Shown: positions 5,453-11,308 of the stretch, in pieces
Numbering within the stretch: position 1 is the stretch's first letter
How the letters are laid out: the number at the start of each line of letters is the position of its first letter
Origin: Candidatus Micrarchaeota archaeon
GTDB taxonomy: Archaea; Micrarchaeota; Micrarchaeia; Norongarragalinales; Norongarragalinaceae
Direction of reading: 5' to 3'
DNA: 64,000 nucleotides
Assembly: GCA_016207165.1 (NCBI GenBank)
Contig: JACQQD010000005.1
Span: 1-64,000 of the forward strand
The notes under the pieces: model-generated
Told to the model about the DNA's origin: nothing
Database searches by the model: none
The model's input: the letters and a program-made list of their open reading frames with translations, nothing else
Program-made: the position numbers and the translations under genes

Positions 5453-6142
5453 ATGAAAAAGAGAGGCTACGGTAAAGTATTGGCCTTGACGCGGGAGGTG
5501 CTGCGCAACCGCACCATGGCGTCCAAGATCGTCAATGAAGCTGCCGACGTTTTAAGCGAAGGCGGCCTGGTCATTTTGCCGACGGAGACGGCGTACGGCA
5601 TTGCGGCGGATGCCACCAATGATGACGCCGTTCGAAAGGTCTTTGAAGCCAAGCAGCGCCCGCTTGAACGGTCGGTGCCCATCATGGTTTCGGACCGTTA
5701 CATGATCGAGGAGTACGCGGAACTCTCGCCGCTGGCCCGTCACTTGATGAACCAATTCATGCCTGGACCGCTCAGCCTGGTCGTGCCCAAGAAGGAACCC
5801 AACGGTTTGGCGCCTTCTTTAAGCGAGAAGGGCGTGTCGTTTCGCATTCCGGGCAATGATTTCGCTCGCGCCATCGTGGCGGAACTGGGCAAGCCGGTGA
5901 CCACGACGTCGGCGAACATTTCCGGCGAGGGACCTCTGTACTTGGTGGACCAAGTCAAGGCCACGTTTTCAAGCAAGGTGCACTTGATTTTGGATCAAGG
6001 CGACTTGCCGCCCCGCGAGCCCTCCACGGTGTTGGACTTGCAGGGCGCAACGCCGAGGGTCTTGCGCGTGGGACCGATTTCCGAAGAGGAAGTCCAGAGA
6101 GCCATTGCGGACTTTCAAGCGCGCGCCGTGGCCACGGCCTAA
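5453..6142 (+). CDS. sua5: Threonylcarbamoyl-AMP synthase Sua5/TsaC
   Basis: PTETAYG, KQRP, PGPLS, TSANISG, STVLDL. Confidence 0.95.
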   Translation: MKKRGYGKVLALTREVLRNRTMASKIVNEAADVLSEGGLVILPTETAYGIAADATNDDAVRKVFEAKQRPLERSVPIMVSDRYMIEEYAELSPLARHLMNQFMPGPLSLVVPKKEPNGLAPSLSEKGVSFRIPGNDFARAIVAELGKPVTTTSANISGEGPLYLVDQVKATFSSKVHLILDQGDLPPREPSTVLDLQGATPRVLRVGPISEEEVQRAIADFQARAVATA

Positions 6143-7098
6143 AACCAAGTTGCTTTAACGTCGTCTGGTCGCCAGTGCGGCAAGGGTTCTGCCGACGGAG
6201 AAAGTGGTTTCTGCCCGGAGTTGTAGGCCAAAAGCCCGTTCCACGCAATCATGGCGCCGTTGTCTACCAAGAACTCGTTTTCTGGCACCAACATCGTGGC
6301 GCCGCGTTCCTGGCACATGGTCCTGGTTTTTTCCTGGAGGATTTTCGAGCACGCCACCCCTCCGGCCAAGACCAGTTCGTCTTTTTCAAAGTGCGAAAGC
6401 GCGCGCTCGGCCACTTCGCACACCATGTCAAACGCGACTTCCTGTACGCTGAAGGCCATGTCTTGTGGTTTGTTTGATTCGGCTTTGCGTTTGAAGTCCG
6501 TGGCGAGGCCGGAAAAGCAGACGTCCATGCCCTTGACGTTGTACGGCAAGTCCACGAATTTTTTTCCTTTCAACGACAATTCGTACAAAAGCGGTCCGCC
6601 GGGAAAACCCAGTCCCAAGTGCCTTGCCGACTTGTCCAACAAGTTTCCGATTCCGATGTCCAGGGTTTCGCCCACGACGTCGTATCTTTTCTTTCCTTGA
6701 ATCAAGACCTGCGTGTTGCCCCCGGACACATACAGAAACACGGCATCCTTGGCGCGGCACTCTTTGACCCCGATTTCCAGGTGTGCCACGGCGTGGTTGA
6801 CTCCAACCAGCGGCACGTCCAGCTTCTTGGAGATACTTTTGGCGTACTGCATTCCTTCAAACAGCATGGTGCCGATGCCGGGGCCCTGGGACACGGCGAC
6901 GGTGTCCACGTCGCTGACCAACGCCTTTTCTACCACTTCGTCGCGGTGGGCTTTGTGGAATTCCAGGACTTCTCTGGGCACCATGCCTCTGGATGACGAG
7001 GTAAAACTGGCTTTTTCATTGGAAAGAAAGCGTCCGCTGGAGTCGACGATGGAGGCGCCAAACGTGTGCGCGGTGCATTCGATTCCAAGGCATTTCAC
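6139..7098 (-). CDS. kae1: t6A synthase Kae1
   Basis: GIECTAHT, GPG, NHAVAHLE, VSGGNT, GETLDIGIGN, DNGAMIA. Confidence 0.96.
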   Translation of the reverse strand: MKCLGIECTAHTFGASIVDSSGRFLSNEKASFTSSSRGMVPREVLEFHKAHRDEVVEKALVSDVDTVAVSQGPGIGTMLFEGMQYAKSISKKLDVPLVGVNHAVAHLEIGVKECRAKDAVFLYVSGGNTQVLIQGKKRYDVVGETLDIGIGNLLDKSARHLGLGFPGGPLLYELSLKGKKFVDLPYNVKGMDVCFSGLATDFKRKAESNKPQDMAFSVQEVAFDMVCEVAERALSHFEKDELVLAGGVACSKILQEKTRTMCQERGATMLVPENEFLVDNGAMIAWNGLLAYNSGQKPLSPSAEPLPHWRPDDVKATWF

Positions 7099-7646: not shown

Positions 7647-7670
7647 TTGTGTCAATGGGCAATTGAATCC

Positions 7671-8255
7671 ATGGATCAACTCTCCATCGGGGCCGAAGCC
7701 GTTGTCACGAAGAAAGGCGAGGTCATCGTCAAGCACCGCTTACCGAAAAAGTACCGGTTGCCGGAGTTGGACGAGAAAATCCGGAAATTCCGAACCAAGC
7801 GCGAAGCCCGAATCCTTCAAAGACTTTCTTCCGTCATCCGCGTGCCCAAGGTCCTGCATCAAGGCGCGGACGTGTTGGAGCTTGAGTTCATTCACGGAGA
7901 ACTCCTCAAGAAAGGCTTGAATTCGGTCAACTGCCGCTTGACGGGCCAATGCGTGGGCAAAATGCACGCCGCGCACGTTATCCACGGGGACTTGACGCCC
8001 TCCAACGTCTTGGTTGAACGCCACGGCGTGTGCTTGGTGGACTTCGGTTTGGCGTATTCTTCGCACAAACTGGAGGACTTTGCCACGGACGTGCACGTGT
8101 TCGAGGAACTTGTTTCACCGGAATGCTTTGACGCGTTTTGGCACGGCTACCAAACCGTGATGCCCCAAGCCAACGACGTCCAAAAACGCTTGGAAAAAAT
8201 CAAGGGCCGCGGACGCTACCGCAAGGCTTCCGCTAAACCCGAAAACAAGTATTAA
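7671..8255 (+). CDS. bud32: KEOPS kinase Bud32
   Basis: GAEA, KxRLPKKYR, HGDLTPSN, DFGL, C-terminal RGRY. Confidence 0.95.
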   Translation: MDQLSIGAEAVVTKKGEVIVKHRLPKKYRLPELDEKIRKFRTKREARILQRLSSVIRVPKVLHQGADVLELEFIHGELLKKGLNSVNCRLTGQCVGKMHAAHVIHGDLTPSNVLVERHGVCLVDFGLAYSSHKLEDFATDVHVFEELVSPECFDAFWHGYQTVMPQANDVQKRLEKIKGRGRYRKASAKPENKY

Positions 8256-8264
8256 CGCTTTCGC

Positions 8265-8413
8265 TTACAATTCGCCGACACGGCGTTTCTGCTTGCGCTT
8301 TAAGCGGCGTCGTCTTTTCTTGACCCACTTCCAGCGCATCCTCCCCGCCTTTTTGGAGCTCCTGCCCGCGCAAGCGGGAAGGTGCTTTTCCATTTTCGGG
8401 GACGAGCACCCAT
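8265..8413 (-). CDS. rpl41e: Ribosomal protein eL41 (L41e), split by a 35-nt intron: join(8413..8387,8351..8265), [37 protein letters not shown] (37 aa)
   Basis: Exon 2 encodes the L41e signature MRWKWxKKRxRRLKR; exon 1 encodes the RPRKWK N-terminus of long-form archaeal L41e; SD-like GAGGCG upstream of ATG 8413; below the ORF-track length cut-off. Confidence 0.88.
8352..8386 (-). other. Putative 35-nt bulge-helix-bulge/loop (tRNA-type) mRNA intron in rpl41e
   Basis: Central helix UGGA/UCCA, each strand followed by an AAA bulge; inner hairpin GCACC..CCCGC-UUGC-GCGGG..GGAGC; exon-exon helix UCCCCG/CGGGGA; cutting after the 2nd bulge nucleotide restores the frame. Confidence 0.82.
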
Positions 8414-9170
8414 GTGTTTCTCGCCTCTTTTAGTACGTGTTCAATTTCGTTGACTATTCTTTTTGAATCTCTTCGAATCTCTGTTTCCCAAAACCGCAGT
8501 ACCGTCCAGCCGTTTTCTTTGAGGATGCGGTTGACCCGTTGGTCCTTTTCATGTACGTCTGGACGCCGGTGCCAATAGTCGCCGTCGCAAAATATGGCCA
8601 ATTTGACATCTGGGAACGCCAAATCCGCTTAGCACGTTCTGAGTATGGGCATTTGTTTATAATACCCTATCTCTCTTCGGCTGAGTTCTTCACCGATCAT
8701 GCGTTCAATGCTGGTCTCTCGGGGCAAAATTTGCCCTAGCCGGTGGATGCGGATGTTCTCCACCAAGTCGGGCCTCCTTTTGAGCATTTCAATCCGTGCT
8801 TCTGACATTCGTCGCCGTTGCGCCGGCGTTCGCTTGATGCCTTTCATTGATTCGGAAAGGTTTCGAATGCGAAATCCTAGTTTTTTGGCCCACCGTCGAA
8901 CCGTGTGCCGACTGGTTTTGCTGTAGTTGGCAATTTTGCCAAGGGACCAGCCCAGTTCATAGTATTGTTGCTGAAACTTTTCTCCGTTGAAACTTCTTGT
9001 TTTTCGGTACTTCCAACTCTCTTTCACGGTTCTTGTCTGTACCCTGTTTCTTCGCATTTCCTTGATGATGGTCTTCGGGTCGTGTCCCGTTTCCCGTGCG
9101 ATTTCCCGCAATGATTTTCCTTGAAGGTACTGGCCTTCCAACCATTCTTTTGATAATTCGATTTTGCGCA

Positions 9171-11210
9171 TCAGTCCTGCTTCCAAAGCGTTTTCTTTTC
9201 CTCATCCGTCAAAGCTTCAGCGGCATCCGGGGACCGAATGCCTTTGTTCCAAAGCCTTCTCGCGCGTACGCGCCCGACGCCTTTAAGCGAAACCAATGGC
9301 AACAGTTCCGCTTTCACGCCGTGCTTGATCCGCCGGCGCATGGTTTTGCCTGTTCCCAGCGCCGTGGACTGGTTCAAGAGATACGCCAGTTCGCTGTACG
9401 CGTACGCCAGCCATTCCTGGATGCGGATGCGGGAGTGCAAGACTCCGGGCGGCACGTCAAAATCCCGCAAAATCGCGTCCTCGGTGTGTTCGTTGACCCA
9501 CGCGTTGACGAGTTTCGCGGATTTTAGGCGCGGCAAGGCTTCTTCATCTTGTTCGTCGTCCGCGTCCAAAGCAAACCAGTCGTCCCAAAGCTTGGTTTCC
9601 TCGTTGCGTTTGACTCGAATCAGGGGCCTGGATTCCGTGGCTTTTTGCAGCGTCAAAATGAATTGGAAGTCGTCCTGCTTTTTAGCCATGGACTTAAGAA
9701 ACGCGTGGGCCGTCAAGGGGTCGATGTAAAGTTCCGACACGCGTTTTCCAGCGGGCGTGGCCAACAGTTTGGATTTTTTCTCCCGCGCAAAATCCATGTC
9801 CTTGAGTTGGTTGACTACGCGCTCCACGCCCGACAACAGTTGTTGGGTGTCGCCGTACTGGTGGGCGTAAAACGTGGACGAGAAAAAGCCGAAGAGTTCC
9901 TCGTATGAACCCGCGTAGTTGGAGGCCAAAAGCCCCAACGCGTGCGCGCGAAGGCTCGGTTCGGCGGACAACTGGGAGTACACGTCCTCCAATTCCCCGA
10001 AAATGTATTTGTTGCGCACCGCGCGCAGTTCGTACGGTTGGCACATCATGACGCCTACGCCTCTGGAATCGTATTTGGGCCGACCTGATCTTCCAAGCAT
10101 TTGAGCTACCTCGATTTTCGGAATGAAATCCGAGAACTCCCCGTTGTACCGCTTCAAATCCCGCACGACCACCCAGGACGCCGGCAAATCCAGTCCAGCG
10201 GCAAGCGTCGTGGTAGCGGAAATGACTTTGATGCACCGGTGTTTTTTGAAGCCGTCCTCAATGAGCTCCCGTTCCCTGTGCCCCAGTCCGGCGTGATGGA
10301 AAGCGACTCCGTTTTGAAGGCATTCTGAAAGCAGTTTGCACTGGGATGTCGGAACGGAATACGTCTTGAGGGCTTTTCGGGCGAGTTCCCCGCACTGGGC
10401 TTTTTCCTCTTCCGAAAGAAATGGTTTGACGGTGGACAACAATTGCTTGGCCGCGGATTCGGCAAAACGCCTCGTGGAAACGAAGAACAATCCCTGGCCC
10501 TTGCCGTTCTTTTCGGACAACGCCTTTTGCGCCAAGTCTTTGATCGCCGGGCTCTCGACGGGCACCGTGGTTTCGTCCTCCATGTACAAGGCTTTTGAAT
10601 CGCAGACGCCCATGACCAAAGGCGTCGGCCGGTAATTACTCTGCACGAGCTTTGCGTCCAGCCATTGCGCAAACGCCTTGTCGTTGGGAATGGTTGCGCT
10701 TAATGCCAGCACTTTGACGCCCGCGTTCTTGGCTTTCGTCAACACCACTTCCAACGTAGCCCCCCGGTGGCCGTCCCCAAGCAGGTGCGCTTCGTCAAAA
10801 ACGATCAAACCCATTTTTTCAAGCCAGGACGCGTCGTGGCGCAAGAGCGAGTCGAGTTTCTCGGAAGTCACGATGACGACGTCGTACTGTTCTAGTTGAA
10901 GGGAGCTGGAGTCAAAGTCGCCTGTGGAAACTCCCACCGACAACTCAAAGGCGGCGAGTTGTTCCTTGAATTCGCGGTACTTTTCCGACGCCAACGCGCG
11001 AAGCGGCACCACGTAAAAGGCCGTTTTGTCCGAGGACTCAAAATGCCGGGTGATGGACAAAAGCGCCAACAAAGTCTTTCCGGAAGCCGTCGGCGCTGAA
11101 ACCAGCGTCCGCGGCGAATCCAAAAACCCTTCCTTTAAGGCCTTTTGTTGAAGCGGGTTCAAGTCCGAGTAGCCCAGTTTGGACAAGGTTTCGCTTTGAG
11201 TTAACGCCAT
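9171..11210 (-). CDS. hel308: Ski2-like DNA helicase Hel308/Hjm
   Basis: APTASGKT, PLRALASEK, DEAH, LSAT, FHHAGL, QMLGRSGRP, SELYIDP, GVGRVRARRL. Confidence 0.95.
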   Translation of the reverse strand: MALTQSETLSKLGYSDLNPLQQKALKEGFLDSPRTLVSAPTASGKTLLALLSITRHFESSDKTAFYVVPLRALASEKYREFKEQLAAFELSVGVSTGDFDSSSLQLEQYDVVIVTSEKLDSLLRHDASWLEKMGLIVFDEAHLLGDGHRGATLEVVLTKAKNAGVKVLALSATIPNDKAFAQWLDAKLVQSNYRPTPLVMGVCDSKALYMEDETTVPVESPAIKDLAQKALSEKNGKGQGLFFVSTRRFAESAAKQLLSTVKPFLSEEEKAQCGELARKALKTYSVPTSQCKLLSECLQNGVAFHHAGLGHRERELIEDGFKKHRCIKVISATTTLAAGLDLPASWVVVRDLKRYNGEFSDFIPKIEVAQMLGRSGRPKYDSRGVGVMMCQPYELRAVRNKYIFGELEDVYSQLSAEPSLRAHALGLLASNYAGSYEELFGFFSSTFYAHQYGDTQQLLSGVERVVNQLKDMDFAREKKSKLLATPAGKRVSELYIDPLTAHAFLKSMAKKQDDFQFILTLQKATESRPLIRVKRNEETKLWDDWFALDADDEQDEEALPRLKSAKLVNAWVNEHTEDAILRDFDVPPGVLHSRIRIQEWLAYAYSELAYLLNQSTALGTGKTMRRRIKHGVKAELLPLVSLKGVGRVRARRLWNKGIRSPDAAEALTDEEKKTLWKQD

Positions 11211-11308
11211 GGCAGAAGGCTTGTGGCGGGCCACGATTTAAAAACCGGTTTAGGCCTCCTGGCCGGTGAAACGCCTTTCTTTTAATTCCTGCCGACGTTC
11301 TTTGTGCC

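Follow-up and report, generated by a model that had tools for sequence, protein, structure and literature searches.

The window analysed here is a 64,000-nucleotide (nt) stretch of DNA from a Candidatus Micrarchaeota archaeon (assembly GCA_016207165.1, contig JACQQD010000005.1, positions 1 to 64,000). Its genome is called G000; other G numbers denote related genomes, and L numbers denote fetched loci. On the minus strand, at 8265-8413, lies rpl41e, the gene for ribosomal protein eL41, also named eS32. Very probably, judging from sequence comparison, the organism is a DPANN archaeon of the Micrarchaeota type and this is its one rpl41e gene, split by a 35-nt mRNA intron of the archaeal endonuclease type.

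The rpl41e locus

An earlier note on this DNA had reported that the gene is frameshifted as it stands and that removal of 8386-8352 repairs the frame. A scripted deletion of this segment bears the claim out, giving a product of 37 amino acids (aa). The other statements of the note on the sequence of 8265-8413, which cover frames and fold, also hold, with one correction to the fold given below. Without splicing, the start codon of rpl41e (ATG, 8413-8411) opens a frameshifted frame of 37 aa (8413-8300), and an ATG at 8393, which is an out-of-frame reading of AAA TGG in codons 7-8, begins an open reading frame (ORF) of 42 aa. The conserved core of the protein begins with an internal ATG at 8339. 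Compared with the protein of the intronless relative G009 (L005), the spliced product differs only at position 30 and agrees in the other 36 of 37 residues. The features of the locus are collected in Table 1.

Table 1. Features of the rpl41e locus and of its predicted pre-mRNA fold, in window coordinates. BHB, bulge-helix-bulge; BHL, bulge-helix-loop; MFE, minimum free energy.
Feature	Position	Strand	Remarks
Shine-Dalgarno-like AGAGG	8424..8428	-	10 nt 5' of exon 1 start codon
Exon 1 of rpl41e (eL41/eS32)	8387..8413	-	27 nt, codons 1-9 (M G A R P R K W K)
Predicted BHB/BHL-type intron	8352..8386	-	35 nt, phase 0, between codons 9 and 10; equals the alignment gap against intronless G002 and G009
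Exon 2	8265..8351	-	87 nt, codons 10-37 plus stop codon (8267-8265); holds the MRWKW core
Exon-exon outer helix, 5' strand UCCCCG	8397..8402	-	pairs with 8342-8347
Central 4-bp helix, 5' strand UGGA (exon 1)	8389..8392	-	pairs with 8354-8357; MFE fold and BHB parse
5' splice-site bulge AAA, 3 nt	8386..8388	-	predicted cut 8387/8386
Inner hairpin of intron (h')	8358..8385	-	MFE fold
Central 4-bp helix, 3' strand UCCA (intron)	8354..8357	-	MFE fold and BHB parse
3' splice-site strand, 4x6 internal loop	8348..8353	-	opposite strand 8393-8396; predicted cut 8352/8351
Exon-exon outer helix, 3' strand CGGGGA (exon 2)	8342..8347	-	MFE fold

The 35-nt insert is real DNA and no assembly artefact, a possibility that the earlier note had raised against itself. 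Contigs of three groundwater-metagenome DNA runs, all from one study, cross the insert without difference or joint (X1 record 7, 5035 nt; X2 record 10, 2216 nt; X3 record 11, 560 nt); X1 may be the source of the window. The X1 run also contains loose ends of two co-occurring relatives, one insert-free and the other with a 41-nt insert like that of G001. A look for sequencing runs that contain the stretch turned up no RNA run.

The encoded protein has the features of the long archaeal form of eL41/eS32, being 37 aa long (~36-37 aa is typical), very basic and built on the pattern RPRKWKK..MRWKW, with homology to known ribosome chains. A profile of 22 intronless 37-aa orthologues, to which the window product is tied by its near-identity with one of them, aligns at residues 1-33 with three archaeal ribosome chains, 9fny_A2, 6sw9_0 and 6skf_Bk (E = 8e-10 to 2e-9). 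These chains come from solved Pyrococcus and Thermococcus ribosomes and are labelled L41e, aL41, eL41 or eS32. In them the same N-terminal RPRKWKK motif continues into MRWKW, as the earlier note had stated for the archaeal protein. Because the solved chains align from residue 1, the long form is the normal archaeal eL41/eS32, its N-terminus being built in the ribosome models.

Family databases add little here. Pfam and NCBIfam gave no match for exon 2 or the 42-aa ORF, and the Ribosomal_L41 family (PF05162) gave only a chance match elsewhere in the genome. Because PF05162 also fell short of its cut-off in control genomes, among them those of M. jannaschii and H. volcanii, the model is uninformative for archaeal forms. 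A 28-aa query from exon 2 found matches in 60 of 61 related genomes at E <= 10, with 58 genomes at 7e-5 or better and weak matches only in G005 and G021 (0.11-0.15). In G000, the window locus is the only rpl41e match to this query.

Predicted fold of the pre-mRNA

The MFE fold of 8415-8330 has an energy of -42.1 kcal/mol (z = -3.58), and none of 200 shuffled sequences was as stable. The fold contains the UGGA/UCCA central helix, the inner hairpin and the UCCCCG/CGGGGA exon-exon helix that the earlier note had described. In addition, the note had placed an AAA bulge 3' of each strand of the central helix. On the 5' side this stands, as a clean 3-nt bulge, whereas on the 3' side the AAA belongs to a 4x6 internal loop, within its 6-nt strand (8353-8348). 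A strict BHB motif has a 4-bp helix and two 3-nt bulges. Here the helix forms all four pairs and the 5' bulge is clean, but the 3' site sits in the loop, so that the predicted motif is a relaxed one (BHL or HBh'-like) rather than a strict BHB. For archaeal EndA, the splicing endonuclease, the note had invoked a rule by which the cuts beside the 4-bp helix follow the second nucleotide of either bulge; by computation, this rule gives exactly the 37-aa frame.

The predicted fold also pairs codons 2-6 with exon 2, and one may speculate that this pairing delays initiation. A search of 8100-8700 against Rfam found nothing near any gathering score.

One structural rule for introns at six positions

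The locus was compared with 68 genomes of the order to which the window belongs. For 19 distinct intron-bearing genes, we listed every cut position compatible with the orthologous protein (mean 3.5 per gene). At a compatible position, the central helix forms four of four pairs in 16 genes, three in two and two in one; in all other registers, which serve as background, four pairs form in only 33 of 1795 cases (1.8%). Five genes have a single compatible cut position, and all five show the complete helix there. Including the gene of G036, which has two introns, the complete helix is found in 17 of 21 introns (20 genes). The 5' bulge is AAA or AAU, cut after the second A, in 19/19 distinct genes. 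By computation, the same structural rule restores the frame for all 21 introns.

Six splice positions are used, after nt 26, 27, 28, 29, 32 and 44 of the coding sequence (CDS). Position 27 is shared by the window and G001, and position 26 by five genomes of family f10 together with two named genomes outside the 68. Positions 28 and 29 occur in one genome each. Position 32 is found in nine genomes of four families. The inserts are 30-42 nt long and include all residues modulo 3. Among the loci first fetched from relatives, five inserts are multiples of three (33, 33, 36, 36 and 39 nt), and each of these contains an in-frame stop codon, as read by eye.

The variety of lengths and sites bears on the possibility that no RNA is removed and that the ribosome itself crosses the insert, by a programmed frameshift or by a bypass. 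Phage T4 gene 60 is a known case of such a translational bypass. At the window locus AAA stands at both junctions, and a ribosome that hopped from one to the other would make the same protein. However, inserts of 30-42 nt in all three frames fit no single frameshift, and in the five genes with only one compatible cut the flanking codons mismatch as take-off and landing sites. In addition, the putative take-off codon at the window locus is not followed by a stop codon, and what is conserved among the genes is BHB geometry, which a bypass does not need. We therefore regard recoding as extremely improbable.

The rpl41e gene of G036 (L035, G036:C2:14850-15521, gene from about locus position 183) carries two inserts in its 111-nt CDS. 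The first, of 37 nt at position 32, has three of four central pairs. The second, of 42 nt, lies after CDS nt 44, inside codon 15 of the MRWKW core, and its structure is canonical, with a palindromic central helix of four pairs, 3-nt bulges and a stacked 3-bp outer helix. Only when both inserts are removed by the rule does the product match, residue for residue, the protein of an intronless relative in the same family. If left unspliced, translation from the internal ATG meets a stop after 11 codons. Since the core itself is interrupted, neither a long nor a short protein is possible in G036 without removal of RNA.

Compensatory changes in the intron structure

Covariation was assessed in two groups of introns that share a cut register. 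In the position-32 group (8 sequences), RNAalifold recovers two elements, the exon-exon helix and the hairpin of the intron; of the 24 pairs, 12 have changed on both sides. When the central helix is added, 90.1% of cells are paired, against 39-50% with slid partners, and 14 pairs are changed on both sides; none of 500 shuffles reached the observed values. One central pair is G-C in five sequences and A-U in three. The 5' partner in this pair occupies the third position of an exon 1 Lys codon and the other is an intron base, so that a synonymous exon site tracks a base of the intron. In the position-26 group (7 sequences), 94.6% of cells are paired, compared with 31-60% in slid controls. Six pairs are changed on both sides, a count reached by 11 of 500 shuffles, and the covariation score was reached by none of 500. 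Intron-bearing G000 and G001 have the codons that make up the exon-exon helix, and intronless G002 and G009 lack them, which is a description of four sequences. These patterns point to an intron structure maintained by compensatory change.

Such change is hard to reconcile with a pseudogene, into which a small hairpin element would have inserted with an incidental likeness to a BHB motif. The immediate upstream gene has an in-frame TAA, which tells of decay nearby, and metagenome bins may hold defective alleles. However, this is the only rpl41e match in the genome, and both of its exons are intact and nearly identical in product to the intronless orthologue. Furthermore, one structural rule mends the frame for 21 inserts in 20 genes, and the central helix consists partly of exon sequence that covaries with the insert. 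A pseudogene is thus highly unlikely.

Distribution of intron-bearing and intronless genes

A search pattern for exon 1 matched in 63 of the 68 genomes of the order, once in each and twice in G032, and a reversed-pattern control gave no match. The five genomes without a match are 69-88% complete, and in two of them, G005 and G024, the exon 2 match stops at a contig end. The earlier note would have been contradicted if relatives lacked the upstream exon, which they do not; when the search was based on exon 2 instead, exon 1 was present at 56 of 57 loci with the core, the remaining one being off by a single residue. Among 63 classifiable genomes, 45 are intronless and 18 have inserts, which measure 31-42 nt (17 found by pattern, and G036). 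The 18 are spread over 7 of 11 families and 12 of 35 genera. An uninterrupted 37-aa gene was found by script in 40 fetched loci of relatives, and by eye in L042. The alignment of relatives, which the note had proposed as a check, thus yielded both intronless orthologues and helix covariation.

Both forms of the gene occur side by side at close range. In the genus of the window, G002 is intronless and G001 has a 41-nt insert at the same site; the interior of this insert is unrelated in sequence to that of the window and has a similar fold. The metagenome bin G032 contains an intron-bearing copy (L030, contig C44) and an intronless copy (L036, contig C3) that encode the same protein apart from the start codon, and the gap left when the two are aligned matches the predicted 37-nt intron exactly. 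The 3' halves and the downstream DNA of L030 and L036 are nearly identical, and their upstream regions differ. The two forms may reflect a strain mixture, recombination or duplication.

Among about 185,000 species genomes, a gap of insert size between exon 1 and the core occurs in 18 stretches, titled Micrarchaeota (15), Norongarragalinales (2) and 'archaeon' (1) in their records. A broader pattern, in which the insert could lie at any point from Trp8 to Arg32, found these 18 stretches again and no others. Matches restricted to residues 1-19 in Hadarchaeota and Thermococci were at first suspected of introns, yet all proved to be intact intronless genes. L070, L089 and L117 merely have longer C-termini and were left out of the intron counts.

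The conservation of exon 1 bears on whether splicing is needed at all. Without it, a 24-aa eL41, as in eukaryotes, could be translated from the internal ATG at 8339, with exon 1 remaining as a relic. The ATG exists, and older ribosome models carry L41e chains of 22-24 aa (4v4n_Ah, 5jb3_0). Moreover, eL41 is not universal in archaea, one genome being reported without it in the accessible part of PMC3082918. However, none of the 18 intron-bearing genomes of the order has lost exon 1, and each of its positions is written with 2-6 synonymous codons. Exon 1 also has its own Shine-Dalgarno-like GAGG, found within 25 nt upstream of its start at 16/16 intron-bearing loci listed and at many intronless loci too, whereas no Shine-Dalgarno sequence stands at a working distance before the internal ATG. 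The helices of the insert covary with exon bases, which an unspliced spacer would not need. G036 is the strongest argument against a protein made only in the short form, as there the internal ATG is followed by the second insert. For these reasons, we consider translation of the short form alone very unlikely.

In seven genomes from a different Micrarchaeota lineage, with records named Micrarchaeota or Bilamarchaeaceae (L161-L165, L167 and L168; e.g. L161:1777-1976), a leader precedes an intact intronless rpl41e. It consists, in order, of a copy of the first 26-27 nt of the gene, a small hairpin, the complement of codons 6-9 and a Shine-Dalgarno sequence. By eye, the 26-27-nt copies are alike within a genome in five of the seven and differ between genomes. 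The upstream part has the layout of the position-26 introns (AUGG, AAA bulge, hairpin, CCAU). The fold of the L161 leader is not compelling (z = -1.78). The leader could be a fossil exon 1 and intron left behind by a retro-copied gene, or a regulatory leader.

Splicing machinery in the genome

G000 encodes an EndA homologue of 428 aa (L063:1198-2484, minus strand) with two catalytic-domain matches and one N-terminal domain match. Its residues 52-428 align with ARMAN-2 EndA (4fz2/9w2k) at E = 1.9e-120; the 4FZ2 structure is of an epsilon2-type enzyme, according to excerpts of PMC3488258. Counted on the alignment, the loop (ASL) residues Y160 and K161, the catalytic residues Y236, H251 and K282, and the bulge-stacking residues R275 and W384 are all kept, their roles being those given in the available text of PMC12397907. 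ARMAN-2 EndA cleaves strict BHB as well as relaxed substrates in vitro (PMC12397907 and PMC3488258). All of the related genomes checked (5/5) have an EndA homologue of full or nearly full length, which in one case is divided between two contigs. Identity to the G000 enzyme is 54-55% in the two position-26 genomes outside the 68 and 69-73% inside the order. The homologue in the intronless G009 (G009:C11:2815-3993) has one in-frame TGA within the match.

The ligase RtcB is found in G000 with a score of 479 bits in an open frame of 963 aa (G000:C9:93630-96344; L065, L066). The family match is split in two, covering profile positions 1-50 and 48-426, and the parts lie about 1.35 kb apart in the same frame. 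Since the match is split within one open frame, the sequence suggests that RtcB holds an intein. Thus, the host encodes both an epsilon2-type EndA from the family that cuts relaxed motifs and an RtcB ligase.

With intron search, ARAGORN placed introns in 22 of 35 predicted tRNAs of G000, some of these calls (introns of 235-2014 nt) being doubtful. The cbf5 gene of G000 is uninterrupted. When all of G000 was scanned for BHB motifs linking two open frames, 75,502 candidates came up; demanding strict helices and flanking frames of 60 codons or more reduced them to 54. Around the top 10, the translations resemble off-frame sequence and abound in R, G, W and C. The scan says nothing for or against further mRNA introns, and rpl41e itself would be missed by its length filter.

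Neighbouring genes

Upstream of rpl41e on the minus strand, at 8414-9186, lies a gene with a helix-turn-helix (HTH) domain and a Vsr/DUF559-like endonuclease domain. It is probably a pseudogene, since an in-frame TAA (8631-8629) falls inside the endonuclease domain. Past this TAA, the frame stays open across the entire rpl41e locus to 8233. A similar C-terminal motif, read by eye, is translated from the DNA upstream of rpl41e in several relatives, intron-bearing and intronless alike, which suggests that they share this neighbour. The locus is flanked by a Kae1-like ORF (6139-7098, minus strand) and a Bud32-like kinase ORF (7647-8255, plus strand), and a Ski2/Hel308-like helicase is found at 9171-11234; these three names come from reading the translations and not from a family search.

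Discussion

Our analysis agrees with the proposal of the earlier note that the eL41 mRNA carries a tRNA-type BHB/BHL intron, for which the intronless orthologues, the covariation, the double interruption in G036 and the presence of EndA and RtcB all argue. Splicing of this kind might, as the note speculates, couple ribosome biogenesis to EndA/RtcB activity. In the pathway that we propose, the pre-mRNA would form a central helix between UGGA, four bases of exon 1, and UCCA, the final paired bases of the intron. The 3-nt bulge and the intron hairpin would lie to one side of this helix, and an internal loop closed by the exon-exon helix to the other. The epsilon2-type EndA would cut after the second unpaired base on each side (Table 1) and RtcB would ligate the exons, with the 35-nt intron probably freed as a circle. 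The mature mRNA would then be translated into the full 37-aa protein.

Several points weigh against this interpretation. The splicing reaction itself is inferred from DNA, and so are its parts, namely cleavage, ligation, circularisation of the intron, production of protein from the spliced mRNA and the relative timing of splicing and translation. The 3' site at the window locus lies in a 4x6 internal loop and has no clean 3-nt bulge, so that its cleavage would depend on a relaxed specificity that has been shown for ARMAN-2 EndA and not for the enzyme of G000. The central helix is imperfect in 4 of 21 introns, with three of four pairs in three and two of four in one. It was also imposed by hand in the pairing and shuffle tests of both groups, and RNAalifold itself leaves it out in the A/U-rich group. 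Applied to 10 introns of mixed register, RNAalifold returns no intron structure, because MAFFT cannot align differing cut registers; hence the two register-consistent groups. In addition, the exon 1 pattern demanded the conserved residues, which makes their invariance among the matches partly a matter of construction, and all genomes compared are metagenome bins. Taken together, short-form translation, pseudogene and recoding are nevertheless left with only a small share of the probability, each being contradicted by several independent results.

A wider reading, possible but doubtful, is that the first 45 nt of the 111-nt gene are a hotspot of recurrent gain and loss of endonuclease-type introns in Micrarchaeota. 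It is prompted by the six splice positions, the unrelated introns within one genus, the presence of both forms in one bin, the gene with two introns and the fossil-like leader. If it is true, there may be an active route of insertion, for example reverse splicing into an abundant mRNA rich in Lys codons followed by copying back to DNA, with loss through copies of spliced RNA. Alternatively, the introns may be under selection for some function, for example to control the supply of eL41/eS32 through splicing.

The locus very probably contains a real mRNA intron, probably an unreported one, and as such would be a rare natural case of archaeal mRNA splicing. Coding-region introns of the endonuclease type would thereby extend to a second gene family, to another phylum (DPANN/Micrarchaeota) and to epsilon2 as a new type of enzyme. 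The 45 intronless and 18 intron-bearing genomes, with six positions and one double intron, form a natural series for the study of intron origin, sliding and loss. For annotation, the consequence is that gene callers will give a wrong 42-aa ORF or miss rpl41e; therefore, small genes that seem to be missing from reduced archaeal genomes may sometimes be split genes. In addition, an 86-nt transcript would offer a compact test of how a broad-specificity endonuclease recognises its substrate outside a tRNA body.

No report of an intron in archaeal L41e/eL41/eS32 or in any archaeal ribosomal protein mRNA was found in the open-access full-text literature and preprints, and an earlier mention elsewhere is possible. 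Two papers mention both L41e and BHB, in unrelated passages as far as their available text goes. In the same searches, crenarchaeal cbf5 was the only coding-region precedent found.

In eukaryotes, the HAC1 and XBP1 mRNAs undergo unconventional splicing by Ire1 together with RtcB or a tRNA ligase. As proposed for rpl41e, a short intron is excised by an endonuclease without the spliceosome, the ends are joined by a ligase of the tRNA pathway and the reading frame is altered. However, the endonuclease there is Ire1, the site structure is another one, and the process is regulated by stress. XBP-1 and RtcB are mentioned in the abstract of PMC8718801.

Among archaea, a close parallel is the cbf5 pre-mRNA intron. 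It was reportedly described in Crenarchaeota by Watanabe in 2002 and Yoshinari in 2006, and is treated by Yokobori in 2009 (PMC2738675). It is likewise a BHB intron of the endonuclease type inside a protein-coding sequence, handled by the tRNA splicing machinery, as inferred for rpl41e, in lineages with a broad-specificity EndA, and gained or lost among relatives. The rpl41e intron differs in that it interrupts a 37-aa ribosomal protein instead of a pseudouridine synthase, belongs to Micrarchaeota/DPANN, and would be cut by an epsilon2 enzyme and not a hetero-oligomeric one. Among relatives, rpl41e also has six splice positions within a CDS of 111 nt, with up to two introns per gene. The BHB intron in the 5' untranslated region (UTR) of HVO_1309 of Haloferax volcanii shares with it an mRNA as substrate of the archaeal splicing endonuclease and was verified by circular intron reads and in vitro cleavage, according to the portion of PMC7714728 consulted. 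It lies in a UTR and interrupts no reading frame, however, and its host enzyme is strict for BHB motifs (same source). In the text available from that source, which dates from 2020, cbf5 is given as the only other BHB intron reported in archaeal mRNA. It also says that short intron circles tend to be under-recovered.

Finally, the relaxed (HBh'/BHL) tRNA introns of ARMAN-2/Micrarchaeota, as described in excerpts of PMC3488258 and PMC12397907, involve the same epsilon2 EndA family and the same class of motif, with a central helix, one clean bulge and one open side. The rpl41e intron differs from them in its setting, an mRNA without a tRNA body, where Lys and Trp codons form part of the central helix. 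Its proposed mechanism is of a known kind, and the novelty lies in the substrate, lineage and type of enzyme and in the many positions at which the gene is interrupted.

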